Origin: Coleofasciculus chthonoplastes F2-STO-03
Lineage (GTDB): Bacteria > Cyanobacteriota > Cyanobacteriia > Cyanobacteriales > Coleofasciculaceae
Assembly: GCA_040222015.1 (NCBI GenBank)
Contig: JAVJWO010000108.1
Span: forward strand, 1 to 64,000
Length of the DNA stretch: 64,000 bases
Direction of reading: 5' to 3'
The notes under the pieces are model-generated. The model worked only from the letters and a program-made list of their open reading frames with translations, was not told the origin of the DNA and did no database searches. The position numbers and the translations under genes were made by a program. The first letter of the stretch is position 1; each line of letters starts with the position of its first letter. Shown piece after piece: positions 48,644 to 64,000 of the stretch.

Positions 48644-49264
48644 ATGTACTCTACTAGAGTAATTTCGATGTCTGGGGATATTGTTTTTAGCTTTAATGAC
48701 ATAAAAACCACTCAGGCGGCGGCTTTCCTGATCAAGCTTCATGGTCAGCCTTCGATGAGTTATTTGGGGCTGCTCAAAATGCTCTACATCAGTGATCGCC
48801 GATCTCTACAATATAGTGGCTATCCTATTACAGGTGATAGTTTTGTTTCGATGAAGTATGGACCCGTGTTGACCCGTATTTATGACTATGTGAAGCCAAA
48901 TGGCGGTTTTACCAGTTCTGAATATTGGTCAGAATACATCGCCACAGTTCCCGCCCCCCATGAGCCTAATAAAAAAGTATTTGTGACTTTAATTGCTGAC
49001 CCCGGTGATGATGAGCTTTCTCTGGCTGAAGAAGAAATTATGGAGGCAGTTTATCAAGAATTTGGTCATCTCAATGCTTTTGATGTGGCTGAGTGGACTC
49101 ACTCACTTCCAGAATGGATAAATCCACAGGAAAAAGGTCAAAAAGTTGTTGATATTAAAGTTGTGGATCTACTTCAGTATCTAAAAAAAACTGATGACGA
49201 AATTCAGCGTATAAAAGAAATTGCTGATCGAGAACGCTATTTAGATGGGGTTCTAAATGGCTGA
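48644..49264 (+). CDS. Panacea (PanA/SocA, DUF4065) domain antitoxin (alternative start 48668)
   Basis: LLKMLYISDR, PITGD, MKYGPV and WTHSLPEW motifs. Confidence 0.85.
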   Translation: MYSTRVISMSGDIVFSFNDIKTTQAAAFLIKLHGQPSMSYLGLLKMLYISDRRSLQYSGYPITGDSFVSMKYGPVLTRIYDYVKPNGGFTSSEYWSEYIATVPAPHEPNKKVFVTLIADPGDDELSLAEEEIMEAVYQEFGHLNAFDVAEWTHSLPEWINPQEKGQKVVDIKVVDLLQYLKKTDDEIQRIKEIADRERYLDGVLNG

Positions 49265-49658
49265 TTTATCAATTAATTTGGGTGATATTTTCCTTTTGGA
49301 CACGGGGGGTCAAAAAAATCATTGGTATATTGCGATCGCTCCCCTTTCTTCCGATGAATTTTTGTTTGTAAATATATCAACTTGGTATGAAGGCAGTAGT
49401 GATAATGATGGAACTTGTATCTTAAAACCAGCGGCAAGAATGCCTGGATTTATTAATCGAAAATCATTTCTTGCCTATAAATTTGCGAGGTCTTACACCG
49501 CCGAGCAACTGGAAAAACTCATCGTGCCAAATTCTGACCTTCCCTATGATACGCTTGAGCCTCAGATTTTAAGACGTGTTCAAAGAGAGAGTCTAAATGC
49601 TAGAAACTTAAAGAAAAAGTATCTTAATGCTCTAAGGGCTTATCTGGGAGTTTCTTAA
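49257..49658 (+). CDS. Putative toxin partner (possible PemK/MazF-like fold)
   Basis: Overlaps the antitoxin stop (ATGGCTGA); GDIFLL..H....FVNIST pattern. Confidence 0.55.
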   Translation: MADLSINLGDIFLLDTGGQKNHWYIAIAPLSSDEFLFVNISTWYEGSSDNDGTCILKPAARMPGFINRKSFLAYKFARSYTAEQLEKLIVPNSDLPYDTLEPQILRRVQRESLNARNLKKKYLNALRAYLGVS

Positions 49659-49843
49659 GTTACTTTACTTCACCGACGTGCGCCCAATTTCAACAGCAGG
49701 CGCCCATTTTAACAGTAAAATCTATTCCACAATTTTAGCTGTGTCAGTCCAGTAGGGTGGGTTAGGTAGATATTTCATGAGGAAAATCACCCTTTAATGT
49801 AATATTTCCGCCGTAACCCACCAACAATTAGACGGGTAGAACT

Positions 49844-49963
49844 GTAAGACGTCCCCTTGCGGGGAAGAGGTGAAAGACGACTCAACAGTTGAGTCAACTT
49901 CTAGAGGCGTGTTTCCATCCCCTTGCGGGGTAAGTTTATCAAGCGATTACCGCTTGCGGAAAC
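49844..49963 (-). ncRNA. Degenerate CRISPR mini-array (repeat-spacer-repeat) producing a crRNA-like RNA
   Basis: Two repeats that keep CCCCGCAAGGGG flank a 32-nt spacer (49879-49910); the upstream repeat ends in ATGGAAAC. Confidence 0.8.
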
Positions 49964-49984
49964 TTAACTCCTCTAGCCAAATCA

Positions 49985-50013
49985 AACATAACCGTACTGG
50001 GTCGAAAAGTCAA
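49985..50013 (-). promoter_or_regulatory. Sigma70-type promoter of the mini-array
   Basis: TTGACT-17 bp-TATGTT on the minus strand, about 20 nt upstream of the first repeat. Confidence 0.7.
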
Positions 50014-50046
50014 GTTGGTATCAACTCAAAACAGCAGTATGAATTC

Positions 50047-50079
50047 GGGGAGAGTGGTAGCATGTCAGCGACTCTCCCC
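50047..50079 (-). terminator. Hairpin downstream of ORF 50120-50521 (possible terminator or stabiliser)
   Basis: GGGGAGAGT-N15-ACTCTCCCC; no strong U-tract. Confidence 0.4.
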
Positions 50080-50119
50080 AGTGAGGTAGGATGCTTACCC
50101 TGATATCATCCAGATATGT

Positions 50120-50521
50120 CTAGTCGTTTTTATCAGACTCCGGCTTAACTTGCTCCACATCGAAATTGTTGACCAACAAGCCAAGGCGGTTACTCATATC
50201 CAAGTTCTGCCAAAGTTGGACACCGTTATTAGCGCCAACGATGAACGCTGAGACAATTGCCGCCAGTATCTGAAATTTCCGCAAATGCTTCCAAGAACAA
50301 AAGGATTTTTTAGGTTGGAAATTTGCGTGGTTTTGCGTCTGCTTCGAGTGTTTCAGGTTTTCTTGGAACTTATCCGTCAAACCCAGCGGGTGTAGATTAT
50401 TGTCCGGTACGTCATCTTGGAGCGTAAAGTCATGACCATCCGGTGATGGGTGTGCAGATAAATCTAATTCGGCTAAACCTGCTACAGGGTCAGCCACCAA
50501 TGACTTCGAGTCTTTTTGCAT
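50120..50521 (-). CDS. Orphan protein with an acidic disordered N-terminus and one predicted TM helix
   Basis: 133-aa ORF; AGGT RBS; hydrophobic FQILAAIVSAFIVGA preceded by basic residues. Confidence 0.6.
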   Translation of the reverse strand: MQKDSKSLVADPVAGLAELDLSAHPSPDGHDFTLQDDVPDNNLHPLGLTDKFQENLKHSKQTQNHANFQPKKSFCSWKHLRKFQILAAIVSAFIVGANNGVQLWQNLDMSNRLGLLVNNFDVEQVKPESDKND

Positions 50522-50708
50522 TGTTCGTTACCTATTGTTAAATACGCCAGCTAGAAGTTGCTTGCAACAGTTGAGTCGGTTTTGAGTGCTTATTCAGACA
50601 TCTTTCCTCCCGAATATGTATCAATTTTTACCACCTCATGGTTTTGACCATGAGCTTACCCTCTATCATAATCTCAGACCAATCTCAATGACCACCAACA
50701 AAGTTATT

Positions 50709-51326
50709 TCAACCAACGCATTTAACCTTTTTGAGACTTCCATCCTCCTTGAGAACCATAATCTCAACCTTAATCATTTGCCCTTCAGATAGCAATTTCG
50801 CCTTTTTTGGCTCTTTTTCGGTTAATTTAATCGTTTCCAGAATCGTATATGTTACCTTATTTCCCTTAACGCCTGTAACCGTGGCGTCCAATATTTGACC
50901 CACTTTAAAATCATGAGTGCTAACCACCTCAGCAATTTCAGCTTGACGCGCTGACTCGACAACAGGGGCGCTAATTTCGCCAACGGGTTCAGCGTTTTGG
51001 TAATAACGCATTAGCCGATAAGACCAGCCTAAAATATGTAGCATCACTGGGGGATTATCTTGATAGGCTTTTAGGTATTGATTACAAGCATTGTCAATAC
51101 TTTGGTAATAGTCAGACGTTCGCTTACTATGTCCAATTTGTCTGCCATTTCTGACCAAGGTTTTGAGATAATCAAACAACTTTTTTCCGTCTTGGTTGGC
51201 GTAATTGCGAAGATAGGCGATCGCTTTTCCTAGTTCATTGGCGTCTGTATCTGCTTTGACTAGAGTTTGTGCGATCGCGTGGGCAATTTTCCACTCATTT
51301 TCGGTTAATTCTTCTGTTATTACCAT
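50709..51326 (-). CDS. CRISPR III-D-associated protein: helical N-terminal domain plus S1/OB-like C-terminal domain
   Basis: Last gene of the cas operon; FKVGQILDATVTGVKG S1-like motif; start set to MVITEE. Confidence 0.65.
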   Translation of the reverse strand: MVITEELTENEWKIAHAIAQTLVKADTDANELGKAIAYLRNYANQDGKKLFDYLKTLVRNGRQIGHSKRTSDYYQSIDNACNQYLKAYQDNPPVMLHILGWSYRLMRYYQNAEPVGEISAPVVESARQAEIAEVVSTHDFKVGQILDATVTGVKGNKVTYTILETIKLTEKEPKKAKLLSEGQMIKVEIMVLKEDGSLKKVKCVG

Positions 51327-51390
51327 AGAGATTTTATCCTTGGTTCTTCCAGGTTGTAGAGACGTTGCATGCAACGTCTCTACAATTGTG

Positions 51391-52416
51391 CTAATACATT
51401 CCCTCCGGCGGTTCTCTCTCAGTAGGATATCCCAATACCTTGACTAATTCCTGCAATGGCTGGGATTGCACCAATTCTCGATGCGCCGCCTGAATCGCCT
51501 GTTGGATCAACTGTTGCAAGGGTTTTCCAGTAAGGGGTTGGGATTGAGTTTGATAGGATAAATAGCGATCGCGTAAATTATCGACAGGTTCTAAACTCCT
51601 TACCTCAACTGTCATTGTCCCCATCCCAATCGGTTTACCGCCACCCACTTTAAGTGCAATCGCATTCAGTTTATCTTGTCCGAGTACAATCAGTAGGGTT
51701 CCCAGTTCCCCTTTGGTTAAGTTTCGATAGGGTAATGATGTGGTAAATACAAAAGTTTTCGCCGCTTGTTGTACTGATATTCCCTGGTGTTGCCCTTTAT
51801 CTACAGCCCGAATTGTGTGATAATAAAACTTGCGCCCAGCGACCTTTCCCTGGTTAAAATAACCTGGGTATTCATCAGGACGAGGACGATAGAGAGATGG
51901 CATAAATCCGGGACGAAATTCAGTTGATTCACACTCAGCATCCCTAAACTGAATTAACCCTTGCCAATTCAGCGCCCCAAATACCCGACAAGCGGGACAA
52001 AGTTGGGTTTTATCACGACATTCCTGATAGCCTGGGGGGATTTGATTCGGTTTTGCTTTCGTTTTACACAAACAGCTACGGGTAATCGCTTCATAGGTGG
52101 AACGTACCACACCTTTAAGCGAACTACCGGGAATCATTAACTGTCCCTGGCTTCCCTGAATCATCGTTTTAATCAAGGGAATCGACTTTTGTCCCACATC
52201 CGTTCCCAGGGCGACAACTCCCGTAGAAACGTGTAATCCGGTTTGAACCGTTAATTTTAACTGTAACGTTCCATGGACGCAATCGCGATAATATTGATCG
52301 TGTCCTTTAGGATGTTGTAATTGCGGCTTTTCTTTCGGTAAAGGGATGAGATGATAGGGTTTTGGGGCAGTAATTTGGGATGGTTGAGGGCGGGGAAGGG
52401 GTTTATCATAACTCAT
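51391..52416 (-). CDS. Type III-D RAMP (Cas7 group, Csm5-like)
   Basis: IPGSSLKGVVRS, CPACRVFG, GRKFYYH, GGGKPIGMG. Confidence 0.88.
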   Translation of the reverse strand: MSYDKPLPRPQPSQITAPKPYHLIPLPKEKPQLQHPKGHDQYYRDCVHGTLQLKLTVQTGLHVSTGVVALGTDVGQKSIPLIKTMIQGSQGQLMIPGSSLKGVVRSTYEAITRSCLCKTKAKPNQIPPGYQECRDKTQLCPACRVFGALNWQGLIQFRDAECESTEFRPGFMPSLYRPRPDEYPGYFNQGKVAGRKFYYHTIRAVDKGQHQGISVQQAAKTFVFTTSLPYRNLTKGELGTLLIVLGQDKLNAIALKVGGGKPIGMGTMTVEVRSLEPVDNLRDRYLSYQTQSQPLTGKPLQQLIQQAIQAAHRELVQSQPLQELVKVLGYPTEREPPEGMY

Positions 52417-52922
52417 TTTGGCATATCCACAGTTAAGGCAACAAAATGCACCATTGCAGTAGGTTTAGCGATAAAATAACGCTGGGCTAGTTTCGGCTGA
52501 TTGGGGGAAGTATTTCTCACATCCAGACTTTGAGGATAAATTAGCGATCGCGGGAATCTGGTTTCATTGGTAAGATACCCATAAGCTGGGCGTTGTTCAG
52601 TTTTCCAATAGGATTTATTCTCAGATTTTCTGGGATATTCTGTATCATCAATAATCGATTTAAAGCCCAGAACCTCACCCGTATTCGATAACACAAGTAC
52701 GCTATAACCCTCATTTTGCCATTTCCAGCGCAATTCGCGATCGCAATTAAACATCTGTCCTTCAGGAGAGGGAAAATTATCCGGTAATTTGTCCACAATT
52801 CCACTCACTTGATGACTCCAACGCAGAAAATAATAACTCGGCGCTGTAGCTTGCTGTTGCACTAATTCTCTTAACTCTGTTTCAGTGAGTAACTCTTGAT
52901 AAACACCAACAAAAGGACTCAT
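52413..52922 (-). CDS. csx19: Csx19-like type III-D subunit
   Basis: Size and position between RAMP genes; EGQMFN..RELRW. Confidence 0.65.
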   Translation of the reverse strand: MSPFVGVYQELLTETELRELVQQQATAPSYYFLRWSHQVSGIVDKLPDNFPSPEGQMFNCDRELRWKWQNEGYSVLVLSNTGEVLGFKSIIDDTEYPRKSENKSYWKTEQRPAYGYLTNETRFPRSLIYPQSLDVRNTSPNQPKLAQRYFIAKPTAMVHFVALTVDMPK

Positions 52923-53044
52923 GCTGCACCTGCTTCTACTGTGACTTTTTCCCGGAAGTCTAAAAACCTGAATCGGGGCGGGTTTAATTCCTTATGGTTA
53001 ACCCAAAAGATAGTAGTGAAACCCGCCCCTACACAATCCTCACG

Positions 53045-54004
53045 TTACGCCACATACCCTGAAAAATCTGCTTCTACTCTCTGACGCCAAGCCCGAACCG
53101 CCCGCATCAATAAATCCTGAACTTGTTCCTTTCCTTGCCAATTTAACTGTACTCCAAACCCCAGCGCCATTGATTCCGCCCGCACAGGAGTATCTTGCAT
53201 ATCATTAGCTGGAAAACCATAGCGTTCTCGTTCCTCCGCCTCCAGAAACATACCAGCACCCAAAAGTTGATTAGCTTGCCATTCTCCCCCACCTCCTAAA
53301 CTACAAATCTGTTGATTTTCAATAACACAACCCGGATATTGGACAACCGCCTGGTTTAATTTTACGTCCACAATTCCCAAGCCGCGAGACTTCGCAAACC
53401 CCAAGCCAAACCATCCCTCATCCAAATCGCGCAACACTAAACCAATTAATCCCAATTGGGCTAACGAGAAGTTTTTAAGATGGAGTTTAGTACGAAACTC
53501 CCCAGCCGTACAAACTTGATAATTAAATGGTCCCACCGCCACCGAACCAAACACGCGGTCAATCGCCACACCATTCCGTTCTTCCAATTTCACAGGTTGA
53601 GATTCAACCGGATAAGCATCCTCAATTCTAATCCGACTAGCAATTGACTTATTGCCAAACATTTGATCAGTGAAGGAAGATAAACGGTAAATATCTGCTG
53701 AGTCATCTTTCAGATAGTCATAGTTATCAGTTAACGGATCATTTGCCCAAAGCACATCCGGATTATCAGAATTACGATTATCGCGTCCCACCGTTCTCAC
53801 AATTCGTTCAGCATGAGCGCGGATTGCCCCTTTTAAAGAACTTCCCGGTAAATAAACCGAACGCCCTCCCCCATGATACGTTTCCACAAATTCCATATCC
53901 GGCTTCGTCGGATCAGCGCCTTCTCGCCCTGACTTAATCAGAATCGGACCACAAGGAACTAAACTAAAATCAATCGTACATTGATTAACCAATCGTTTGT
54001 GCAT
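53045..54004 (-). CDS. Type III-D RAMP (Cas7/Csm3 group)
   Basis: YLPGSSLKGAIR, RNGVAIDR, GFAKSRGLG. Confidence 0.9.
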   Translation of the reverse strand: MHKRLVNQCTIDFSLVPCGPILIKSGREGADPTKPDMEFVETYHGGGRSVYLPGSSLKGAIRAHAERIVRTVGRDNRNSDNPDVLWANDPLTDNYDYLKDDSADIYRLSSFTDQMFGNKSIASRIRIEDAYPVESQPVKLEERNGVAIDRVFGSVAVGPFNYQVCTAGEFRTKLHLKNFSLAQLGLIGLVLRDLDEGWFGLGFAKSRGLGIVDVKLNQAVVQYPGCVIENQQICSLGGGGEWQANQLLGAGMFLEAEERERYGFPANDMQDTPVRAESMALGFGVQLNWQGKEQVQDLLMRAVRAWRQRVEADFSGYVA

Positions 54005-54034
54005 AATCTAAATTTGTCTGAGACTACCTGTCGT

Positions 54035-54655
54035 TTAAGCCGCAACTAAGGTATCTAGTTGGGCTTCACAATGTTGAAAAATCGAGTTAACAACTGCAAA
54101 GAGTTGATCAAGATTTTCAATAATGTATGGAGTCGTATGTTTGGTAAATACATTGCCTTCTAGTTTACCAAACTGCCAGACTTGCCCATTAGAAACAATT
54201 CCAAATACAGTAATCTGAGGATATTGATTCAGGCGTTGAGCCGCCACCATTTCGGCGGCACACTGACCCCACCCTTCCTTAAACTTATCTTGTTTTGCCT
54301 CAACCAGTAAGAAATAGGGTTGGTCAAAAACCACCTTTCCCAGGGGAGAGCGTTTCGCTAAAATATACTCTGGAAAACCCGAAAGGGTCTCATCGTAATT
54401 TAGGGATTCGTGACTCCATAAAATAAACTTGCTTGAATAACATTTCCAGACTTGTTTCAGTACCGGATAAATGAGATTCTCACAAATAGCAAACTCTGAA
54501 TTATTCACCACCCCTTCCCGCATCACCATCTGGAGATCTTCGCGGAAATAGTCCGGAATATCAAAGGGAGATTCAACAATAAAATTCCCTTCTGTATAAC
54601 TAATCTGAAACTCCTGGATAACATCCGCAATACTTGTGTACTTGCTAAATGACAT
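54035..54655 (-). CDS. Cyanobacterial PD-(D/E)XK-like hypothetical protein inserted in the cas operon
   Basis: LVEAK..GWGQCAAEMVAA and GIVSNGQVWQF; start set to MSFSKY. Confidence 0.7.
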   Translation of the reverse strand: MSFSKYTSIADVIQEFQISYTEGNFIVESPFDIPDYFREDLQMVMREGVVNNSEFAICENLIYPVLKQVWKCYSSKFILWSHESLNYDETLSGFPEYILAKRSPLGKVVFDQPYFLLVEAKQDKFKEGWGQCAAEMVAAQRLNQYPQITVFGIVSNGQVWQFGKLEGNVFTKHTTPYIIENLDQLFAVVNSIFQHCEAQLDTLVAA

Positions 54656-54720
54656 AATCACCTCACAACATTTCGTTCGTAGTTGCCCGTAGGGTGCGTT
54701 AGCGGAGCGTAACGCACCGT

Positions 54721-55154
54721 TGAACAAGGGCAGGTTTTGTTGTTCAATTATCGGTAACCCGCCAGATTGAATCTCTAAACCCACCCCTACGATAGGGTAT
54801 CGCATTTCCTGTGAATAAGGGCGGGTTTTGTTGTTCAATTATCGATAACCAGCCAAAATCAATCCCTAAACCCGCCCCTACGATAGGGTATCTGCTTTCC
54901 TGCGAATAAGGGCGGGTTTTGTTGCTCAGGTGTTGGTGAAAAGCGAGATTAAGTCCCTAAACCCGCCCCTACGATAGGGTATCTGCTTTCCTGTGAACAA
55001 GGGCGGGTTTTGTTGTTCATTTATCGGTAACCCGCCAGATTGAATCTCTAAACCCACCCCTACGATAGGGTATCGCATTTCCTGTGAACAAGGGCGGGTT
55101 TTGTTGTTCATTTATTGGTAACCCGCCAAGTTAAATCCCTAAACCCGCCCCTAC
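54721..55154. repeat. Five tandem REP-like palindromic units with a 91-bp period
   Basis: Units start at 54721, 54812, 54903, 54994 and 55085, each GGGCGGGTTT...AAACCCGCCCCTAC. Confidence 0.9.
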
Positions 55155-55171
55155 AATAAATTGATACATCA

Positions 55172-56047
55172 TCACCTCGTATTCACCTCAGCATTCTGAT
55201 TTTTCCGATTTTCCAGATAGCCAATCAAAGATTGTACCCACTGGTCTTTATACCCTTTACCATCCTCATAAGCTGAACCCTCATTATTAACCATTTTCTT
55301 AAGATAATTCAGCAACTTATCTGCATCAATATTATCCGGTTTATTTTTATCTCTGGCGTCAAACCAATCCATCCGCTCAACCTCCAATTTAACCACACCC
55401 AAACCCCGCGAACGCCCTCCCCCCAGTGGAATTTGTTCCGTCTCAAACTGATGTAACCCAATCATTAATAATCCCAACTCCCAATCCTCAGCATTTTCCA
55501 CCACCGCCTTAAACGCAAAAGGAGTTCCCGCTGGAACCACTTGGAAATCATACAATTTCCCATCAGCCGCCGTTTCCGTATCTCTATCAATCGCCACCCC
55601 ATCCCGTTCTTGATATTGACCAAACCAATACTCTGAGATAACCATCAAATCTCGAACTTGAAACTTACTCGCCAGCCAAGGTGAACCAAATAGATGAGAA
55701 ATTAAATCAGTCTGATTTAAAATAGCCTCAGTTAGCGCCGTATCCGTAGGATATCGCTCTTTCAATTGCTTCATTTCCTGAGCCGTAATCGCCCACTCCT
55801 CCTCTACCGCCGGATTAGCCACCAAAGTCCGCTCCCCGCCCAGGATACCACGGAGGAAGCTTTCTAAGCGCGATCGCAACGCCCCCTTAAAACTAGCGCC
55901 CGGTATCAACGGTTTACCCAACGCATCTTTAATCACCGGTAAATCCGAACCAATTGGTTCCGTGGAACGCCCTGCGCTAATTCTTAGTGCCGTTACCGTC
56001 ATCAACTTCCCGCTAATTTCCAAACGATTCTTAAAACAATCAAACAT
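55172..56047 (-). CDS. csx7: Type III-D RAMP (Cas7 group, Csx7/Csm3-like)
   Basis: IPGASFKGALRS, RDGVAIDRDT, GGGRSRGLG. Confidence 0.85.
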   Translation of the reverse strand: MFDCFKNRLEISGKLMTVTALRISAGRSTEPIGSDLPVIKDALGKPLIPGASFKGALRSRLESFLRGILGGERTLVANPAVEEEWAITAQEMKQLKERYPTDTALTEAILNQTDLISHLFGSPWLASKFQVRDLMVISEYWFGQYQERDGVAIDRDTETAADGKLYDFQVVPAGTPFAFKAVVENAEDWELGLLMIGLHQFETEQIPLGGGRSRGLGVVKLEVERMDWFDARDKNKPDNIDADKLLNYLKKMVNNEGSAYEDGKGYKDQWVQSLIGYLENRKNQNAEVNTR

Positions 56048-56253
56048 AAGATTATCTCCAAGTTCGTATTTACGCTGTCTTCGCCCTAAACCTTCGCCTC
56101 CCCACCACCAACCCTAACTTTAACTTTTCACAGGAAATCTAAAAACCTGCGTCGGGGCGGGTTTAGTCACATCCGGATGCAACCGAAAAGATAGTAGTGA
56201 AACCCGCCCCTACACAATCGTTGCGCCACATACCATAAAAACTAAAACCCTAA

Positions 56254-56823
56254 CTAACTCAGACTCAACCAACTAAACACATCTTGAACCGATAACCGCA
56301 ACTCTCCCAAAGAACTAAGCACAGACAAACTATCTTGATTTTGCTTAATTTCCGGCTGTTTTCCTGGTTTAAAAATAATTATTGAACGCTCCTGCGGATC
56401 AATAAACCAACCCAGTGCTGTGCCATGATTCAGACAAAACAGAATATTATCAATCACACGGGTTGAACTTTGTTCCGGTGACAAGATTTCAATCGTCCAG
56501 TCTGGGGCAATTTCAAAAGTATTCTCAATTTCCCCATTCCCATCAACTGGAATACGTTCCCAGGAAAAGACAGTTATATCTGGCACCAAAGAACGCCCAC
56601 CAAAGGTACAGCGCAACTCAGTAAACGCACGCGCTATTTTCTTAGGGATAGCGACTTGATTGATAGCCGGAGCTAAAAACGTTTGGATAGCGCTGTGTTT
56701 TCCTTTAGGCATTGGTTTTTGGTAGATTTGACCATCGATATATTCACTTGCGGGTTCTGTTTCTGGCAATTGCAGGAAATCAGCTAGAGAAATTTGGGTA
56801 GAAGACGGAAGCGGTATAATCAT
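56254..56823 (-). CDS. Uma2 family protein inserted in the cas operon
   Basis: PASEYIDG, VPDI, APDWTIEILSP. Confidence 0.88.
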   Translation of the reverse strand: MIIPLPSSTQISLADFLQLPETEPASEYIDGQIYQKPMPKGKHSAIQTFLAPAINQVAIPKKIARAFTELRCTFGGRSLVPDITVFSWERIPVDGNGEIENTFEIAPDWTIEILSPEQSSTRVIDNILFCLNHGTALGWFIDPQERSIIIFKPGKQPEIKQNQDSLSVLSSLGELRLSVQDVFSWLSLS

Positions 56824-56831
56824 AGTAAACT

Positions 56832-58019
56832 TTAATTTTTTATTTCTTTGCCTTCGACATACTTATGCGTTCCGTAATGTCTGAGTATTAACGTTCCGTT
56901 AGATGATTTACAGCTAACACGAAACTGTCTTCCTACATAAAAATGATCAACGCCCTCTTTGTCTTTTGTTCCTTTATAGGCATAATAACTCACTGGTTTA
57001 GCCAAGGCTCTCGTATCACCATTGGATTCTTCAAGTAAGAATGAAGCTTTAGCTATTGTTTCTTGTAGTTTAACTTTATCTTTTGGATTTTTAATTTTTT
57101 TATAGTCTTCCATAAATGAACCATCGTAATGAATTCTAAGAAAGCCATCTAGTAGCTTTTGTGACAATAAATTATCTTTGCACTGATTCCAAACAAGTTG
57201 TCCCCAGTTAGAAAGAGTCATCTTTCCATCAATCTCTGCTACCATCGCTTCTGGAACTTCTTTCGTTTCTGATGGAGACAAACCAGCTCCAGCGTCCAGC
57301 AATGCTAGAGTAACTACATGGTCTTCAAGTCGAGAATAATCTACAGTAATGGGCAAGCGAGGTATAGTAATTAAGTTTGAGTTTTCCCCTTCAAACACAT
57401 AAATGATTTTATCCGCATAAAACATACCGATTGTATTCATACAACCTTGTAAGGCTTTAAATCCACCGACTAAATTAAAATAGATGTCATAGTTTTGTTG
57501 TCGATAATTTTCCACCCGTCCTTCAAGCCATTCAATCAAATCGTCAATTCCTTGATTAAAATTATGGGTACTTTCTGTTGAAAGTTTGTCAGGTGTGTAT
57601 ACTTCAACAGAATTAACTTTGCCATGCAAGAAATCTTTAAGAATTTTTGCCGCCTCTTGCCCCTGCGCTGTATCTGTGGTTACTAAAATGTGAGCATCTA
57701 GCTTGCCCTTTTCTAATTGCTCATCATATAATCCATAAATACCATTCAGTTCAGCACTAGCTTCTCGAATTTCCAATGTATTACCAGTATCTAATTCCTG
57801 TTCAGCCCTATTTTTTAATTTCGCAATTTTATCTGCGAGTTTCGAGTCGGATTTATTAACCTGATCATATTGTTTAACCCGATCATGAGTTAGATTCGCA
57901 TACTTTTGCAATTCTTCCTTCCAGCCTGAGTCACATTCATCATCGATTTGATTGGTTAGCAAACTTGTTCCAACCGTTGAAATTACTAAACGAGGCATAG
58001 TTTTCATAGAGTCATTCAT
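56832..58019 (-). CDS. cami1: CARF (APE2256-type) plus RelE-like effector, Cami1-like
   Basis: ISTVGTSLL, SAELN, NLVGGFK and IYVFE CARF motifs; C-terminal RVSC...LRHYGTH RelE-like tail. Confidence 0.75.
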   Translation of the reverse strand: MNDSMKTMPRLVISTVGTSLLTNQIDDECDSGWKEELQKYANLTHDRVKQYDQVNKSDSKLADKIAKLKNRAEQELDTGNTLEIREASAELNGIYGLYDEQLEKGKLDAHILVTTDTAQGQEAAKILKDFLHGKVNSVEVYTPDKLSTESTHNFNQGIDDLIEWLEGRVENYRQQNYDIYFNLVGGFKALQGCMNTIGMFYADKIIYVFEGENSNLITIPRLPITVDYSRLEDHVVTLALLDAGAGLSPSETKEVPEAMVAEIDGKMTLSNWGQLVWNQCKDNLLSQKLLDGFLRIHYDGSFMEDYKKIKNPKDKVKLQETIAKASFLLEESNGDTRALAKPVSYYAYKGTKDKEGVDHFYVGRQFRVSCKSSNGTLILRHYGTHKYVEGKEIKN

Positions 58020-58030
58020 TGTTTTAGTCT

Positions 58031-58549
58031 TTAGTAGTTATTTTTACTAGCTTTACTCTCTCCTACCAGAGCTGTATGTTCTCTTGCCAAATATCCTAGA
58101 TACAGGCGAGTTAGTTTTAGATGAATATTTTTGATAAATTGGGCTTTATTTTTAGTATCCGTCAGATACTGTTCTAATGGATTTTCTTTGGGGATTGGTC
58201 GTCTCACTCTATCCAGTATTTCTTGTGCATCCTGCTTTAAACTGTCAATCTGTTCAACAACTTCAGTCGCAAAGAGCTTTTTATCTTTAGAGACTTTCCA
58301 AATTCGACTCGCTCCACTACGACCCACTTGATAACGAATATAGTTTTTTATAGCTTCTATTGAAGCATTAGCTTCAGTAGCAGCAGCAAGAACATTTTTG
58401 AAAGGAGATTTTGAATCTTCACTGGCAATTGAAAATTTTTTGGATATGGCTTTAACTTTGAGGATAACATCATCCATTTGTCTACTAATTTCCACCTCAG
58501 TTCTTAACGTCAGTTGTTCTTGGAGCAATGGATCAAGTAATTTCTCCAT
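58031..58549 (-). CDS. Type III small subunit (Cas11/Csm2-like)
   Basis: Helical protein after csx10; NYIRYQVGR and LYLGYLAR. Confidence 0.75.
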   Translation of the reverse strand: MEKLLDPLLQEQLTLRTEVEISRQMDDVILKVKAISKKFSIASEDSKSPFKNVLAAATEANASIEAIKNYIRYQVGRSGASRIWKVSKDKKLFATEVVEQIDSLKQDAQEILDRVRRPIPKENPLEQYLTDTKNKAQFIKNIHLKLTRLYLGYLAREHTALVGESKASKNNY

Positions 58550-58551
58550 GT

Positions 58552-59820
58552 CTAAACTGCCTCCTCACGCAAAACTAAATGAAATTCATTGCAAATTTGC
58601 ACTTGACCAAAGCCCTCGCAAGTGCGCTCGCCTACTCCCTTCACCTCCAAATAGTTTAACCTCTCCATCCAGAGATTGGGTTGAATCGTACTGAAAAGAT
58701 AAACAGCTCCCTTATTAGTAATCAACTCTACATCTTTCATCAATCCCCATGCAGAATTCCAACCAGATAGGTAGTCATAGCTGCTGTAGGCAGCGTGTAG
58801 TTGTAGGGATGAATCAGTAACACCTGTAAAATACTGTAGCATTTCTGGTGAAATTACCGTGGTACGTCGCCAGTTTTCATTCAGAATCGTATCTGACTGT
58901 AAATCAATAGTAAAATACGTGCGATTTTGCAGTAAATCTTGTTGTGGCTGACCAAAAATTTGCCAATCCTGCCAACGCTTATGTAGTTTGTCCTGAAACA
59001 TCTTGATTCGCTCCTCGACAGATGGCTTAACGGCTGTGGTATCTACAGGTGACTTAGCCGTGATTTTTACTTTTCCTAATCCCCGTGAAGTTGAACCACC
59101 CAAGCGGAAATCTTGCTGATAATTAGTGATAAAGCGTTGTAAAGATTCGGCTAGTTCATCGGCAACTAGGATCGCTCCTGTATAAATCACAGGCTTTTCT
59201 CTCTTACCTGCAATTTTAGACTCGTTTAAAACTTCAATACTATAGAGTACTCCTTCTTCTGTAGTGGCTCGGCGTCGATTGATGCCAGCTCGTGTTAGTA
59301 GGCGAGTATTGGCAGAATGGCTGTGGTACTTGTTACCAATTTTACTGTAAAATTCAGTAAAAGTATCCACTCTATCACCATCTTGAGGACAAGTCGGGTC
59401 ATATAAATGACCATAGCCATCAGCACAAAAGCGATCGATTAAGGTGTCAAAAACACCATTATGATCAGAATCGTTAGGTTTTGATTTAAAACCGGGCTGA
59501 GTTTTGGAACTTAGAGCCGTAGCAGGTACAACCCAAACATCTGACTGAACTCTAGTTTGTTTTTGTCCCTCAATGGTTGCTGGATACGCATTGTGGAAAA
59601 TTGCTGGATTGTCGCCTATAAATAAAGCTTGAAAGTCACCTCCATTGTCTGCCAAATTAGCTGACTGATGTCCTGACTGTCGTAGAATCTGAGCAGCCAT
59701 CGCCCCCCGAATTACTGAACCGGGAATATAGTCTCCGGCTTCACTCACTGAACCCCCTGGTTTTTTCCGCCCAATGGCTAAAGGAGATAACGCTTTAATT
59801 TCCAGTTGAATGCGCTTCAT
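58552..59820 (-). CDS. csx10: Type III-D RAMP Csx10 (Cas5 group)
   Basis: YIPGSVIRGA, GGSTSRGLG and GERTCEGFG (two G-loops). Confidence 0.88.
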   Translation of the reverse strand: MKRIQLEIKALSPLAIGRKKPGGSVSEAGDYIPGSVIRGAMAAQILRQSGHQSANLADNGGDFQALFIGDNPAIFHNAYPATIEGQKQTRVQSDVWVVPATALSSKTQPGFKSKPNDSDHNGVFDTLIDRFCADGYGHLYDPTCPQDGDRVDTFTEFYSKIGNKYHSHSANTRLLTRAGINRRRATTEEGVLYSIEVLNESKIAGKREKPVIYTGAILVADELAESLQRFITNYQQDFRLGGSTSRGLGKVKITAKSPVDTTAVKPSVEERIKMFQDKLHKRWQDWQIFGQPQQDLLQNRTYFTIDLQSDTILNENWRRTTVISPEMLQYFTGVTDSSLQLHAAYSSYDYLSGWNSAWGLMKDVELITNKGAVYLFSTIQPNLWMERLNYLEVKGVGERTCEGFGQVQICNEFHLVLREEAV

Positions 59821-60547
59821 TTGCTCCTCCTTTGGCTAAATAATTCCACACTGACTCATCCACCTGAATTGAGGGAAGTTCCCACTTCAACCATCCTAAT
59901 CCTACTGATTTAGAACCCCCCAAAGCATTAATATGGTGTAACCCAGCTAAAATTAAGGCTTTGGTAGAAGCCGGACAATTAGGCTGAAGGTGAATGTCGC
60001 CAGTAAACTTAAGCTGAATATTAGCGGGTGAAGTTTCTAGGAAATAGAGTTTTTTCTCTTCAGCCGTATGACGACGACGATTAATCGTCACACCTGGGCG
60101 GAGAACTTCTGAGGGAAGATTATCGGGTTCTTCTTGGCAAATTAAGTCATCAAAAATGACTCGTGACGGTAAGGCGGGATTGCCAAAAATCTGACAAATT
60201 AAACAATGATATCGGTTATCTCCTGCTACTCGATAATCCTCGTCTCGTTGAAAACGCCTCGCCTCATTGTCGGGAAAATCTGCACGCTGGGGACACATAG
60301 TTTGAGGATTAGGGGCTTGACAAATTGCCCACCCTAACCCCCGTGCTAATTTCTCACATTCATGACGCAAACGCCCTTTAAGTTGAGACGCTGGAATTAG
60401 GAGTTTGTTGTCCGCAGTACGCACAATTGGCTTATCGGCGAGAGAACCGGAAGAACCTCCTGCACCCACGCATAAAGCAGTATCAATAACAGCCGTTAGG
60501 GAGATTGTTTCGACTGGATTTGATAATAAGTCTTGCAGATAAATCAT
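59795..60547 (-). CDS. Type III-D RAMP (Cas7/Csm3 group)
   Basis: IPASQLKGRLRH, CLICQIFG, GGSKSVGLG. Confidence 0.9.
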   Translation of the reverse strand: MIYLQDLLSNPVETISLTAVIDTALCVGAGGSSGSLADKPIVRTADNKLLIPASQLKGRLRHECEKLARGLGWAICQAPNPQTMCPQRADFPDNEARRFQRDEDYRVAGDNRYHCLICQIFGNPALPSRVIFDDLICQEEPDNLPSEVLRPGVTINRRRHTAEEKKLYFLETSPANIQLKFTGDIHLQPNCPASTKALILAGLHHINALGGSKSVGLGWLKWELPSIQVDESVWNYLAKGGANEAHSTGN

Positions 60548-62907
60548 ATTAATCGCGCCCCTGTCTGGCTAGGTTGTTCAGTGGTTTCAATAATAAAAGG
60601 ATAAAGTTCGACTAATTCCCGCCAGATAGTTTCATAGGTAGTCGTACCATCCTTTTCCGGTAACGACATCCAGGGTGATAAGTTACCACTATTAGTCTTG
60701 GCATCACACCAGGCTTTTTCAAAATACTCCTCCAACAATTTTTGGTTTTCCAGTTCCAAGCGAACGCGGAAATAGCGATAATTGAGGATAGCGGTGTGTT
60801 TACCTTGTTCGAGTAAACTGCGGATTTGATAAAGTTGCGATCGCGGAAATTCTGACTGCTTTAATTTCTCCCCTGTTTCAATCAATCCGCCGAGTTCGTG
60901 TAAGGTGTAGGGTGCGCCATAAAGTTTCAACTTGGGTTTGCCTTTTTCCTGCTTAGTTAAAGCCTCTTGGCGAAAGGCTTCAATATTGGAGGAAATCATC
61001 GTTACCGACTTCAGCGTGAGAAAGTCAACAGTTCCGCCGTGATAGTCATAGTCTTTTTTTAACTGCTTTGCCTTCTTCTTGGCTGATTTAAGTAATTGAC
61101 TTGTTAGATTTTCGGCATAATAAATTGGTGTTTGATAAGCCGTAATTAGAACCCCCGTTGACATACTCAGTTTACATTGTGAAGGTTTGACAGATATCTG
61201 CCCTTGGTATCGGTGACAGTCTTGAGAACGTGAGATTATTTCTGGATCAGTAATTCGATAGTCTTCTTTCCCTTGTATCTTTTCGCCTTCCAGAAGAATT
61301 CGCTCAAACTCCTCGCCAATAGTTTGAGCAATTGCCAGGGCTTTATCGGCTGGTACAATTAACATGACATCATCCCCACCAATTGTGAGGATTTCAAAAG
61401 GATGAATAATCGATCCATTCCGATGTTGATTGTCTCCAGTTAAACCGTTTAATTGATGAGGGTTAAGATGTCGTCCGAGGGCGTGGTAAACCGATTCCTC
61501 TGTGGCTGTAAAGATATCTCGGCTAAATCGGCGACAATCTTGGGGGGTTTTGAGTTCTTTCTGAATATAACCTCCTATGTTATTGCCATCAGCATAAATA
61601 TAGCCAACAAAACCATTTCCAGCATTGCCAATTTCGGTGAGCGATCGCGCTTCGCCAATTTTCTGTTTTGAGATGTCTTGATAATAGCGATCTCGATAGT
61701 GACTTTTTTCGATAAAACGCCTAAATTTAACCACCCAGCTTTCCAGATACCCTGAATTCCATAATGTTTTAACTTGACCAAATTGCCATTTCCAATCCGA
61801 ATTTTTTGTCCACCATTTCTGACTGCGACTCCCTTCCCCTTTCGTTCGTTGCCCAACAATACGCTTACGGGCTAAAGCATCAGAAAACCAAGGTTCATCC
61901 GGAAGACGACTCCCAGGGGCAATAGCTAGGCGATGTTCGACGTCATCCCGCAATAAATAAGGATGGGTTTCAAACATAGGCGGATAGCGACGGCTGGGGC
62001 GTTGGCTATCGGGTAAGTTATTACCGTTGCGTCGCTGCTGAAATAAAGCCGCCAGTTTCCCCGTTATTTCGTTAAAATTCTTGCGATTTTCAAATAAGTA
62101 TTTCCAGGGTTGACCGTTTTTAAGTTGACCAAAGTAGGCGCTTGTAATCGGATTTGTTTGCCGTTTATTATCCTGTAAATACCAGTCTAACCATTTGCTT
62201 TGTTCAATCGGATTGTCAAGTAATCCAAATCGCAGTTCCAGCAATCTGAAACTTTCTCCTACAGCACAAGAATTAGCGGTCAAGGTTTCTTCTGTATAGC
62301 GTTTTTCAATTAAATTGACCAAATCCGGGACAAAGGCTGTCGGGCAAAAGGCTAAAATGTTAGCCCCGGTTGAGTAAATCACTAACTCAGGAATCAGTGC
62401 GTCCCATAACGGGTGTAGTGTTTTATCTTTGTGTTGTAAGTCTCGCCTAACCCTTTGGCAATATTGTCTGGCTCGGTAACATTCGGGAAAGTCCTCTGGC
62501 AATTCTTCACATTTGAAAAAGGCAGGTAAATCTATTAAATTAATTCGATCCAGTAATGCTGATGCGCCCCGAATTTCGGGAAGTTTGGCTGATTCAAATA
62601 CATAGCCTTTAATCTTTGTTGCACCGCCGTAGACTAAACCGATTCGGGTGGTTTGCTCCCACAAATTGGCATAGTTATCCTGAAGATCAGTAATTTTATC
62701 GGGAAAATAGTCTTGGGAAATCTCTTGTAGTTGCCGCACCGTTTGTAGTAAGCACTTTAGTGCTTCTGTATCCGGAACATCTTTCCCTTGACGCAGCGCC
62801 TCTCGCATTTGCTGCAAGATACTCAAATCAAACTGCGGTTCACGCCCCTCGCCCCAAGCGAGACACCAGGCGATTCCAATGGTTAGGAGGGGTAGAGAAT
62901 GGGTCAT
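60544..62907 (-). CDS. cas10: Cas10, no apparent HD domain, intact GGDD cyclase motif
   Basis: YADGNNIG and IGGDDVML Palm2 motifs; short N-terminus before Palm1. Confidence 0.93.
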   Translation of the reverse strand: MTHSLPLLTIGIAWCLAWGEGREPQFDLSILQQMREALRQGKDVPDTEALKCLLQTVRQLQEISQDYFPDKITDLQDNYANLWEQTTRIGLVYGGATKIKGYVFESAKLPEIRGASALLDRINLIDLPAFFKCEELPEDFPECYRARQYCQRVRRDLQHKDKTLHPLWDALIPELVIYSTGANILAFCPTAFVPDLVNLIEKRYTEETLTANSCAVGESFRLLELRFGLLDNPIEQSKWLDWYLQDNKRQTNPITSAYFGQLKNGQPWKYLFENRKNFNEITGKLAALFQQRRNGNNLPDSQRPSRRYPPMFETHPYLLRDDVEHRLAIAPGSRLPDEPWFSDALARKRIVGQRTKGEGSRSQKWWTKNSDWKWQFGQVKTLWNSGYLESWVVKFRRFIEKSHYRDRYYQDISKQKIGEARSLTEIGNAGNGFVGYIYADGNNIGGYIQKELKTPQDCRRFSRDIFTATEESVYHALGRHLNPHQLNGLTGDNQHRNGSIIHPFEILTIGGDDVMLIVPADKALAIAQTIGEEFERILLEGEKIQGKEDYRITDPEIISRSQDCHRYQGQISVKPSQCKLSMSTGVLITAYQTPIYYAENLTSQLLKSAKKKAKQLKKDYDYHGGTVDFLTLKSVTMISSNIEAFRQEALTKQEKGKPKLKLYGAPYTLHELGGLIETGEKLKQSEFPRSQLYQIRSLLEQGKHTAILNYRYFRVRLELENQKLLEEYFEKAWCDAKTNSGNLSPWMSLPEKDGTTTYETIWRELVELYPFIIETTEQPSQTGARLI

Positions 62908-63946: not shown

Positions 63947-64000
63947 GTTTCCGCTAACTTACTCCCCGCAAGGGGATTGAAACTCAACTTCTTCTAGTGT
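63947..64000 (+). CRISPR. First repeat (GTTTCCGCTAACTTACTCCCCGCAAGGGGATTGAAAC) and partial first spacer of the type III array, cut by the window edge
   Basis: 37-bp repeat with hairpin and ATTGAAAC end beside the cas operon; only one copy is visible. Confidence 0.85.

Follow-up and report, generated by a model that had tools for sequence, protein, structure and literature searches.

CRISPR-controlled toxins are known from CreTA, described for type I-B in Haloarcula and for type I-F in Acinetobacter and Pseudomonas (PMC8501985, PMC9458426, PMC10097628, PMC12737573, PMC8730458). As far as the accessible text of these papers goes, a degenerate two-repeat mini-array beside the cas genes provides a guide that is partly complementary to the control region of the adjacent toxin; type I Cascade acts on promoter DNA to block transcription of a small-RNA toxin, and the proposed logic is that the cell is made dependent on the effector. 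In CrePA, a protein toxin is restrained by a CreA-type guide, and its release upon effector inhibition is proposed as an anti-anti-CRISPR response (10.1101/2024.01.05.574328); the effectors described there are DNA-binding and act on transcription, and we found no type III case in the accessible CrePA literature. CreR and the crlRNAs (types I-B, I-E, I-F, and V-A) combine a degenerate mini-array with a conserved spacer and serve regulation, not defence, with guides that, in the accessible accounts, hit cas or other defence promoters on DNA. In the portions of this literature available to us, CRISPR-regulated toxins and cas-regulating guides so far employ DNA-binding effectors (types I and V, and type II relatives), and the terms 'type III' and 'III-' are absent from the text of the CreR/CreTA-type preprints examined. 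Repeat-like units flank type III cas operons in 10–14% of loci (Shmakov et al., 2023); according to the accessible part of that study, type III mini-arrays show no positional conservation, enriched Cas10 clade or targets, and were judged to be probably degraded or non-functional.

The stretch analysed here (hereafter the window) comprises 64,000 nt of a Coleofasciculus chthonoplastes F2-STO-03 contig, and includes a type III-D cas operon (50709..62907, minus strand) that encodes Cas10, Csx7-type RAMPs, Csx10, and a CARF protein, as well as an inserted Uma2 gene, a 267-aa gene, and a terminal 221-aa gene. The III-D assignment, first made in a sequence-only reading of the window, is borne out by the Csx10 match (TIGR02674, 9e-135) and by the operon content (Cas10, four Csx7-type RAMPs, the CARF protein, and Csx3). 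A PDB search showed kinship of the Cas7 paralogs to III-D, III-Dv, and Csm3 chains, and the Cas10 of the locus carries a GGDD motif. The 221-aa product of the last gene in the operon is of no known family; in relatives, this gene precedes the module described below. The main CRISPR array, with 12 identical 37-nt repeats (GTTTCCGCTAACTTACTCCCCGCAAGGGGATTGAAAC), begins at 63947..64000 (plus strand) and continues past the window end, beyond which cas6 is located (contig positions 65966-67075). The genome also contains another CRISPR array type.

A mini-array consisting of a repeat (R1), a single spacer, and a second repeat (R2) is placed 730 nt downstream of the final cas-operon gene. The elements listed for it in the sequence-only reading are all present: a predicted promoter, TTGACT-17-TATGTT (49985..50013, minus strand; consensus scan, 9/12 positions); the degenerate R1 (49911..49963, minus strand), in which an intact hairpin (CCCCGCAAGGGG) and 8-nt handle (ATGGAAAC) are retained; a 32-nt spacer, ACGCCTCTAGAAGTTGACTCAACTGTTGAGTC, hereafter the guide (49879..49910, minus strand; delimited from sequence and alignments); and the degenerate R2 (49844..49878, minus strand). 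R1 begins with GTTTCCGC, followed by an insertion of ~18 nt that disrupts its 5' half, and then AAACTTA-CCCCGCAAGGGG-ATGGAAAC. R2 (GTCTTTCACCTCTT-CCCCGCAAGGGG-ACGTCTTAC) keeps the hairpin and the 5' part, has a degenerate 3' handle, and is similar to complete repeats (CTTTCC..CTTCCCCGCAAGGGGATGGAAAC) in the ordinary arrays of relatives. The mini-array repeats have hairpin and handle in common with the main array; there are four copies of CCCCGCAAGGGG in the window (versus 0.2 expected), located in R1, R2, a solitary repeat (48320-48331), and the first repeat of the main array. Rfam CRISPR-DR matches of R1, R2, and the solitary repeat are all under gathering scores. The -35 box has identical placement in the 39 non-redundant relatives aligned, and the -10 box of same-genus relatives differs by one base (TATCTT). 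Within the genus (4 genomes), R1 varies in 1/64 columns, versus a background of 10-16%, the segment borders used for this count being displaced by 1 nt. The arrangement of one or two degenerate repeats and a spacer beside cas genes is that of CreTA; the two non-identical repeats, the single spacer, and the conservation of that spacer across 40 species genomes set the mini-array apart from an ordinary type III array. A leader–spacer stem (CUAGAGG:CCUCUAG) was considered as a conserved structure and set aside, as both arms are near-invariant and leave no covariation to test, and one same-genus genome (G005) breaks the pairing.

The guide is complementary to a site in the predicted 5' leader of the mRNA of the adjacent gene, ORF133 (50544..50577, minus strand), 621 nt from the guide. 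Alignment of the spacer to the plus strand of this site confirmed the match that had been noticed from the letters alone: blocks of 5+10+4+8 nt (27/32) with two 1-nt insertions in the target; in its crRNA sense, the guide is complementary to the minus-strand transcript over the stretch 23-56 nt before the ATG (at 50521). The match had also been described as bounded by the spacer borders, which is nearly so, although it extends one base (G) beyond the 3' border. The local alignment score of 42 was reached by none of 100-200 shuffled spacers, the maxima of which were 26-28 (z 9-10). In a search of the 7.7-Mb assembly, the target ties as the best non-self match (28.3 bits, E 0.14) with a 24-nt match in another contig (C17), where the opposite strand of the stretch concerned matches as well. 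The match in this single genome is borderline; it is the 621-nt proximity together with the comparative data that renders it significant, and a chance inverted repeat is ruled out by the comparative data despite the genome-wide E value. A mobile element with terminal inverted repeats around ORF133 was rejected, as the arms are unique in the genome and there is no transposase between them. The sole significant guide match is downstream of the cas operon and before the cargo gene, unlike the CreR arrangement, in which the guide is directed to the promoter of its own cas operon. Gap-free pairing in the window is continuous over spacer positions 20-33 only, with the remainder requiring bulges in the target; this bulged duplex counts against the explanation that we favour, in which the guide serves the III-D effector. 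The bulges can be placed at or adjacent to positions 6 and 18, which would be flipped in a type III effector duplex (see below).

The same mini-array is found 3' of the last gene of III-D operons in genomes of 40 named cyanobacterial species, including those of Coleofasciculus, Microcoleus, Nostoc, and Calothrix; the window spacer is homologous to a conserved 34-nt spacer (ACGCCTCTAGTATGGTGATTGAACAGTTGATTCA) in 40 other species genomes. We know of no ordinary spacers that are conserved to such a degree. The handle and spacer start occur as one copy per genome in 16/401 genomes of the order (12 genera), of which one match is an ordinary array and thus a false positive, and the reversed control pattern also yielded one match. 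The 221-aa gene is upstream of the mini-array in 40/42 loci, the remaining two being cut by contig ends. This gene is present in 66/401 genomes of the order, and all 15 module-bearing genomes fall within those 66 (15/66, versus 0 true cases in the other 335). The module is absent from 51/66 genomes that have the 221-aa gene, and from three same-genus genomes that keep Cas10; the III-D system is therefore independent of the module. An antisense site (called at z>=3 versus shuffled spacers) was identified in 31/42 loci, on the same strand as the mini-array and 396-1561 nt upstream of it, and three further loci (L051, L067, and L084) have weaker matches where a site would be expected; about half of the loci have two tandem target sites. 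In five whole genomes, all zero-mismatch copies of the site motif are within the module, and the one-mismatch matches elsewhere number four, equal to the four of the reversed control. No match to the mini-array was found in plasmids, phages, or viral contigs. A second mini-array in one locus (L044) was rejected as a separate family, as its spacer matched once, with three mismatches, among the 401 genomes, no more often than the reversed control (one match).

The recurrence of mini-array, site, and co-divergence (see below) across cyanobacteria means that this is not a chance similarity. The sequence-only reading had named lack of guide–target conservation in relatives as the result that would count against it, and such conservation was found in ~40 species; the relatives are not independent, so these counts overstate the support. 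It is highly improbable that the mini-array is a non-functional relic, such as the decaying end of an array or an old self-targeting spacer carried along by descent or transfer, as Shmakov et al. (2023) concluded, in the text accessible to us, for type III mini-arrays generally. The module has been lost in several lineages, and a few mini-arrays persist without a target, as might be expected of a relic. However, the mini-array is kept across several families despite diverged flanks, its spacer blocks, handle, and hairpin are invariant, guide and target show compensatory changes, and their variation is restricted to every sixth position; unlike the mini-arrays covered by the accessible part of that survey, the family described here has positional conservation, an enriched Cas10 clade, and targets.

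At least three lineages show co-divergence of guide and target. The window-type guide has a score of 42 on its own leader versus a mean of 19.5 on the leaders of other lineages (0/31 reach 42); the corresponding scores are 48 versus 21.1 for L063 (0/33 reach 48) and 30 versus 18.8 for L084 (0/33 reach 30). Within the genus of the window, the target varies in 1/34 columns, and a G-to-T change in the G005 target is matched in the G005 guide. Across 23 non-redundant pairs, the match fraction over spacer positions 10-35 is at least 0.70 except at positions 12 (0.09), 15 (0.17), 18 (0.17), 24 (0.09), and 30 (0.43). The mismatch summed at 12, 18, 24, and 30 is equalled by 3/14950 four-position sets, and the target entropy at these positions by 25/14950; where sites are in tandem, both show this mismatch pattern. 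The diverged L084 pair has mismatches at 12, 16, 18, 24, and 25 and a U:G wobble at 30, and in the window, where the spacer is shorter and the register is shifted by one base, a mismatch is again located at position 24. In the type III effector duplex, every five paired bases are followed by a flipped one, counting from the spacer base that adjoins the 8-nt tag (accessible part of PMC13294483). The weak pairing and high variability at 12, 18, 24, and 30 (plus 15) are those of such an effector-bound duplex, and, judging from the sequences, this six-base rhythm is the pattern that a Cas7 backbone would impose; the recurrent mismatch at position 15 is not accounted for by the model. Together with conservation and co-divergence, the rhythm supports the structural reading proposed at the outset, that of a self-promoted degenerate mini-array of a III-D locus with its guide aimed at the 5' leader of a neighbouring gene.

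The rhythm also bears on the idea that the mini-array transcript is a plain antisense RNA acting on the toxin leader independently of Cas proteins, like a type I antitoxin, with the repeat hairpins serving only for processing or stability. An antisense RNA encoded beside a gene and aimed at its 5' leader has the geometry of type I toxin–antitoxin systems, the window cargo is a small membrane protein with one helix, and the mini-array precursor folds well (-52 kcal/mol, z -3.7). A free duplex, however, gives no cause for mismatch or variation at every sixth position from the tag border, the guide lies between CRISPR repeats that carry a hairpin of the Cas6 type and a tag, and conservation within R1 is highest in the handle and the hairpin, which Cas6 and the effector require; as the module is in addition confined to genomes with the III-D-linked 221-aa gene, we regard Cas-independent action as quite unlikely. 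A DNA-level element is very unlikely, whether the arms serve as an operator for an HTH partner, as a recombinase site, or as DNA on which a type I effector reads the guide as in CreTA. The arms do flank the cargo as an inverted repeat, there is TGAA-N7-TTCA symmetry in the site, many mini-array promoters contain a palindrome (AGCTTGAC-N-GTCAAGCT) near the HTH gene, and the genome has an additional array type; but in the window lineage and two others (L063 and L079) the arms are retained and co-diverge although no HTH gene is present, a protein operator does not yield a 6-nt rhythm, pairing is absent precisely at the type I seed (positions 1-8), and one arm is exactly bordered by III-D-type repeats.

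In the 23 pairs, most of positions 1-9 beside the tag are left unpaired, and pairing is strongest at the tag-distal 3' end of the spacer, which is a further difference from CreTA. For the strict invariance of spacer positions 1-11 there is a partial explanation in the pairing of CTCTAG in the upstream site and in complementarity to the mini-array leader (CUAGAGG). Opposite the tag, the target flank can usually pair at positions -4 and -3 (0.87 and 0.78); in the window, positions -4 to -2 are complementary. Marraffini and Sontheimer are said to have shown in 2010 that tag–flank complementarity marks 'self' in III-A systems. Given the weak pairing beside the tag, the effector is expected to bind and probably to cleave the leader while Cas10 signalling stays off. 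Alternatively, the leader of the toxin operon could be a self RNA that the III-D system senses as a built-in trigger, such that derepression (through phage-induced stress or antitoxin decay) would allow the leader to bind the guide and initiate Cas10 signalling via the CARF effector, with Csx3 as off-switch, resulting in a spacer-independent alarm. This would rest on the same guide–target evidence, and the GGDD Cas10, the CARF protein, and the ring nuclease Csx3 encoded in the locus, the tandem duplicated sites in some leaders, and the match of guide positions 1-5 to the target in the window lineage are all in keeping with it. It is nonetheless unlikely, as the mostly unpaired region is that reported for III-A as the Cas10-activating region (+1 to +7) needed for cOA synthesis (PMC9704408, in its accessible part), and the complementarity of the tag flank points away from Cas10 activation.

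The target site is preceded by a predicted cargo promoter, TGGTCA-18-TATGAT (50665..50694, minus strand; consensus scan, 9/12), and by a conserved leader hairpin with the stem CTCATGG/CCATGAG (50635..50654, minus strand), identified by cross-genus alignment. In the leader alignment, the -10-like box is kept and the hairpin arms co-vary across genera (CTCACAG/CTGTGAG, CTGATAG/CTGTCAG). Cargo transcription is predicted to start near 50658, upstream of the target site, which lies downstream of the predicted -10 box and within the leader, in contrast to the promoter DNA and PAM of CreTA. The conserved leader stays while the cargo behind it is swapped: across 42 loci, the cargo is a Gp49 gene with an HTH gene in 26, ORF133 in four, a 93-aa ORF in two, a HEPN-like gene in two, and YoeB/YefM in two (plus one cut by a contig end).

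In the window, the cargo ORF133 (50120..50521, minus strand) encodes a protein whose N-terminal part is acidic and whose C-terminal part has a single predicted membrane helix, ILAAIVSAFIVGANNGVQL (Kyte-Doolittle 19-residue mean 1.66), and has no family in Pfam or NCBIfam. Its homologues form six clusters, and both clusters with a named organism are from Coleofasciculus. The description of this gene as an orphan membrane-protein gene holds as regards the predicted helix; but it is a cargo specific to the genus of the window, in the slot held in relatives by Gp49/HigB-like or YoeB toxins, the usual cargo being a Gp49/HigB-like toxin with an HTH partner, or YoeB/YefM. The toxins of relatives match Gp49 (PF05973, 8.7e-21) and YoeB (PF06769, 7.4e-32); unlike the small-RNA toxin of CreTA, the cargo is protein-coding, as is also the conserved 133-aa ORF of the window, and in relatives it is, by sequence, a protein toxin under a putative CreA-type guide, the arrangement known from CrePA. 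In relatives, YoeB_toxin is followed by PhdYeFM_antitox (6.9e-13) in the adjacent gene, as is typical of type II toxin–antitoxin systems; none of these genes is present in the window. The 101-aa gene after Gp49, the putative HTH partner, had no significant family match, and an 80-aa remnant of it had weak matches to HTH_37/HTH_3, below cutoff. In contrast to CrePA, many cargos bring a protein antitoxin of their own; in most relatives, one transcript encodes both a type II toxin and its putative antitoxin, which counts against the favoured explanation, as it is then hard to see how the loss of the guide alone would poison the cell. In L056, L073, and L085 the toxin gene is truncated or lost and the target is lost as well, with the mini-array retained in all three; no target was detected beside the mini-array in the two HEPN-like loci and one YoeB locus. 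Mini-arrays that survive without a target suggest decay or another role.

We infer, with a probability of roughly 60%, that the guide is CreA-like, with the III-D effector acting on the leader of a toxin mRNA while Cas10 activation is avoided. The mini-array would be a crRNA-like regulatory gene of the III-D system, CreA-like as in CreTA and CrePA and acting on RNA. Following transcription from its own promoter, Cas6 would cut after both CCCCGCAAGGGG hairpins, and the product, an 8-nt tag (AUGGAAAC) with a spacer of ~32-34 nt, would be loaded into the III-D effector. The guide would then base-pair to the 5' leader of the mRNA of the toxin gene beside it, at one site or at two (in the window, the mRNA is that of ORF133, a putative toxin by its position), strongly over the 3' two-thirds of the spacer, and with pairing absent or out of register beside the tag. 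The toxin would be kept low while effector and guide are present, and loss or inhibition of the III-D complex would release it, as an addiction mechanism or as an anti-anti-CRISPR abortive response.

For the III-D systems of filamentous cyanobacteria as a whole, we consider the odds about even that a hard-wired guide makes the effector a post-transcriptional governor of a swappable toxin cassette, with pairing tuned, by mismatches at the flipped positions and the lack of pairing beside the tag, to spare the Cas10 alarm, and with effector loss or inhibition unleashing the toxin; in a bolder variant, the leader RNA would be a self-made alarm that fires type III signalling upon derepression of the toxin operon. 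The module looks like the first example of a CRISPR-controlled toxin from type III, with control at the RNA level, and we found no published type III CreTA-like system in the literature searched, in which subscription journals are incompletely covered. If correct, it would be the first type III counterpart of CreTA and CrePA at the RNA level and a natural anti-anti-CRISPR device for type III, and gene regulation by CRISPR would then include RNA-targeting effectors. It would also provide a testable explanation of how type III loci protect themselves against loss or anti-CRISPRs, and a natural case in which mismatch placement separates RNA binding and cutting from Cas10 signalling, of use for type III diagnostics and knock-down tools. 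The many natural variants of guide, target, and cargo render the hypothesis testable by ordinary genetics in culturable cyanobacteria or by reconstitution in Escherichia coli.

Metatranscriptome contigs from four runs, derived from a strain of ~5% divergence, span 49852-50650 and beyond; their strand, ends, and level are not readable, and DNA contamination of the RNA libraries is possible. Among the differences listed for these contigs, none falls in R1, spacer, R2, or target, versus ~30 in ORF133, with 57 more differences not listed. Contig depth was unusable as an expression measure. Contig ends at 49852 in three of the four RNA runs were considered as a Cas6 cut and rejected, as two contigs carry 36 more letters and a neighbouring high-copy repeat breaks assemblies. 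The 36 extra letters may continue into sequence unlike that of the window, as in two other genomes (G004 and G005).

In the window, the type III-D operon was identified by profile matches from 62907 to 50709 on the minus strand, and comprises Cas10 (60544-62907), Csx10 (TIGR02674, 9e-135), four Csx7-type RAMP proteins, one CARF protein, two inserted genes (Uma2 and a 267-aa ORF) and, as its last gene, a 221-aa gene without known family. Beyond it are Csx3 (63210-63548), the main array (plus strand, from 63947; 12 identical repeats, GTTTCCGCTAACTTACTCCCCGCAAGGGGATTGAAAC), and, after the array, cas6 (contig position 65966-67075). Downstream of the operon, also on the minus strand, are a predicted cargo promoter (50694-50665), a leader hairpin (50654-50635), the target site (50577-50544) and the cargo gene, ORF133 (50521-50120), followed by the mini-array with its promoter TTGACT-17-TATGTT (50013-49985), degenerate repeat R1 (49963-49911), spacer or guide (49910-49879), and second degenerate repeat R2 (49878-49844). 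Every element that the sequence-only reading had described (promoter, R1, spacer, R2 and target) is present. Within the operon, a 91-nt unit rich in GGGCGGGTTT motifs is repeated 4.8 times in tandem (54721-55158), flanked by the 267-aa inserted gene and a Csx7 gene, and kindred motifs are dispersed over 40-56 kb. A second CRISPR array at 4362-5178 has an unrelated repeat of ~37 nt (GTTTCAATCCCTGATAGGGATTCAGGGGAATTTAGAC, TRF) and belongs to another system.

Alignment of the spacer with 50544-50577 reproduced the claimed 27/32 identities with two single-base insertions in the target, and within the local region no shuffled spacer scored as high (z 9-10). The duplex in the window requires bulges, a point against the functional reading proposed below. 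Genome-wide, the site is only the tied-best match of the spacer (E 0.14); taken by itself, the genome of the window makes a suggestive case and nothing stronger. The mini-array transcript opens with CUAGAGG (49968-49974, minus strand), which could pair with CCUCUAG at spacer positions 4-10 (49901-49907, minus strand), and the predicted fold of this transcript encloses R1 (-52 kcal/mol, z -3.7).

The relatives settle the guide-target relation. In a DNA search of 40 relatives, three genomes of the same genus had the whole module, and a mini-array carrying a related spacer turned up in three further genera. Of 401 genomes of the order, 16 (12 genera) contain a single copy of a 24-nt pattern that covers both the handle (the 8-nt 3' end of the repeat) and the spacer start; one of the 16 is an ordinary array, and the reversed control pattern had one match. 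Within the named collection, 40 species genomes contain an exact 22-nt pattern, their titles including Coleofasciculus, Coleofasciculaceae, Microcoleus, Microseira, Lyngbya PCC 8106, Phormidium, Nostoc, Calothrix, Rivularia, Dolichospermum, Trichormus, Cylindrospermum, Aulosira, Desmonostoc, Goleter, and Amazonocrinis; two matches fall in non-cyanobacterial bins. The family consensus reads, in order, TTGACT promoter, ACTAGAGRRTTTAAGT, a variable R1 5' half, CCCCGCAAGGGG-AT(G/T)GAAAC, spacer ACGCCTCTAGTATGGTGATTGAACAGTTGATTCA, and R2 GTTTTCACCACTTCCCCGCAAGGGGACTAAAAC.

Of 42 loci (40 species genomes, the window and the congeneric genome G005), 31 show an antisense site at z>=3, located on the same strand 396-1561 nt upstream and immediately before the first cargo gene, and weaker matches occupy the expected place in three more. 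The remaining eight loci comprise two on contigs cut short, three with the toxin truncated or deleted, two with HEPN-like cargo, and one with YoeB. In about half of the loci the site is doubled in tandem at a spacing of 33 nt, and in five whole genomes every perfect copy of the site motif falls within the module. As the sequence-only reading had proposed to look for, guide and target co-diverge while the mini-array is conserved: in three diverged lineages (the window genus, Microcoleus sp. F8-C3 and Calothrix sp. MO_192.B10) the guide fits only its own leader, the own-leader score being reached by 0 of 31-33 foreign leaders in each, and single-position guide/target co-changes occur at L053 (position 33), at L081 (position 31), and in G005. 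Against the functional reading, the mini-array persists after target loss in a few loci.

In four genomes of the genus, variable columns amount to 1/64 in R1 and 1/34 in the target, versus 10-16% elsewhere. Metatranscriptomic contigs from four runs, representing a strain ~5% different, cover 49852-50650 and beyond in one piece, which hints at transcription of the module region, although such contigs are silent on strand, ends, and level and may include DNA. Among the listed differences of this strain (57 more exist), none falls in R1, spacer, R2, or target vs ~30 in ORF133; there are fair grounds for purifying selection on these four elements.

The mismatches between guide and target are rhythmic. 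In 23 non-redundant pairs, anchored at the 3' end without gaps and numbered from the first base after the tag, at least 70% of the pairs match at each of positions 10-35 other than 12, 15, 18, 24, and 30 (9, 17, 17, 9, and 43%, respectively). All four bases are seen in the target at 12, 15, 18, and 24, with adjacent positions invariant; mismatch as high as at 12/18/24/30 occurs in only 3 of 14950 four-position sets, and the pattern is present in both tandem sites and in the diverged Calothrix pair. In the window, the pairing register is off by one because its spacer is one base shorter in the 5' part, such that its mismatch falls at consensus position 25 (matched in the consensus), which is position 24 in its own numbering. 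According to PMC13294483, type III Cas7 thumbs flip each sixth base of the guide-target duplex. We take the rhythm to be the trace of selection acting on a duplex that the III-D backbone holds; it argues against both a naked antisense RNA and a protein operator. The mismatch at position 15 is not accounted for by this reading.

Pairing beside the tag is sparse: in the common guide type (23 pairs) it is mostly absent from positions 1-9. Across the family, spacer positions 1-11 do not vary though they are seldom target-paired, which our reading accounts for only in part. In the window, positions 1-5 match the target at an offset of two bases from the 3' block (position 6 and the neighborhood of position 18 can accommodate the extra target bases), and the target flank is complementary to tag positions -4 to -2 (AAA). 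In staphylococcal III-A, a flank complementary to the tag in this way signals "self". In III-A, cOA synthesis is controlled by the Cas10-proximal region +1 to +7 (PMC9704408), and type III RNA cutting is independent of the anti-tag (PMC13294483). By these rules, taken from other subtypes, we infer a site built for binding or cutting, at which the III-D effector would engage the leader without triggering Cas10.

The cargo varies. A Gp49/HigB-like toxin (PF05973) with a 101-aa gene, taken as its HTH partner on weak HTH matches of an 80-aa remnant, occupies 26 of the 42 loci. Others have YoeB (PF06769) with Phd/YefM (PF02604) (two, plus one on a truncated contig), ORF133 (four Coleofasciculus genomes), a 93-aa ORF (two), a HEPN-like pair (two), or the HTH gene alone with the toxin fragmentary or absent (three); one (L063, Microcoleus sp. 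F8-C3) has no recognized cargo, and in one (L071) the cargo is cut off by the contig end. The leader, its sites, and a covarying 5' hairpin are homologous across these differing cargos; thus, toxins seem to have been exchanged downstream of a control region that stayed the same. That most cargos come with an antitoxin of their own counts against the functional reading. A single membrane helix is predicted in ORF133, and its homologs form only six clusters, of which the two with an organism name are Coleofasciculus. In G002, a congener without the module, all that remains downstream of the 221-aa gene is the promoter of the leader and the HTH gene as a 5' fragment, and therefore the window genus formerly had the common cargo form. 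In Microcoleus sp. F8-C3 (L063/L038), an apparent ORF133 relative between target and mini-array is split over two frames, with its membrane-helix part LQKLAAIVTIVAGITTAGSNSIELWQ out of frame with the start (frameshift or assembly error). In most relatives (e.g., L059, L062, L066) the mini-array -35 box lies inside a palindrome, AGCTTGAC-N10/11-GTCAAGCT, which follows the 101-aa HTH gene directly after its stop codon. This palindrome may be an operator coupling antitoxin to guide expression; the window lineage is without both palindrome and gene.

Guide and target together form a module of type III-D loci that is real and conserved. It is dispensable for III-D carriers, a further point against the functional reading: of the 66 genomes that carry the 221-aa gene, 51 are without it, and three congeners retain Cas10 yet are without it. 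The descriptions of CreTA, CreR, CrePA, and crlRNAs concern types I and V, and no type III counterpart was found in the literature searched, the coverage of which was incomplete. Shmakov et al. (2023) report type III mini-arrays in 10-14% of loci, with no positional conservation and no targets, and regard them as degraded. Most likely the module is a functional analog of CreTA/CrePA that operates at the level of RNA; since it does not share their defining features (DNA target, type I effector, RNA toxin), it is a variant apart from these families rather than a member, and is new relative to them as described.

Further repeats accompany some loci. L044 (= L054) has a second mini-array with a different spacer, ~700-780 nt upstream of the main one and after a HEPN-like gene; its best antisense match (20/24, ~2500 nt upstream) was reached by 0/300 shuffles, with mismatches at positions 18, 24, 26, and 30, the same 6-nt rhythm as in the main family. 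This spacer was not found elsewhere (one three-mismatch match in 401 genomes, equal to control). In G002 (contig C37; L005 1-870 and 1480-1850), where the Cas10 match is split into two pieces, an ordinary array abuts the 221-aa gene, and its repeat CTTTCCAAACACACTTCCCCGCAAGGGGATGGAAAC has a handle identical to that of R1. The window has a solitary near-complete repeat, GTTTCCACCAACTAAATCCCCGCAAGGGGACTGAAAC, at 48312-48348 on the minus strand, 1.5 kb past the mini-array, whereas G004 and G005 have two such repeats and one spacer ~130-240 nt after R2; in the window, a gene pair for a SocA/Panacea-domain protein (PF13274, 1.5e-23) and a 133-aa partner (48644-49658, plus strand) appears to have been inserted between. 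Adjoining R2, a short high-copy element (49680-49770; GCGCCC... motifs) recurs on many contigs of the window genome and relatives, has a word depth >19,000 in RNA-library contigs, and is where assemblies break.
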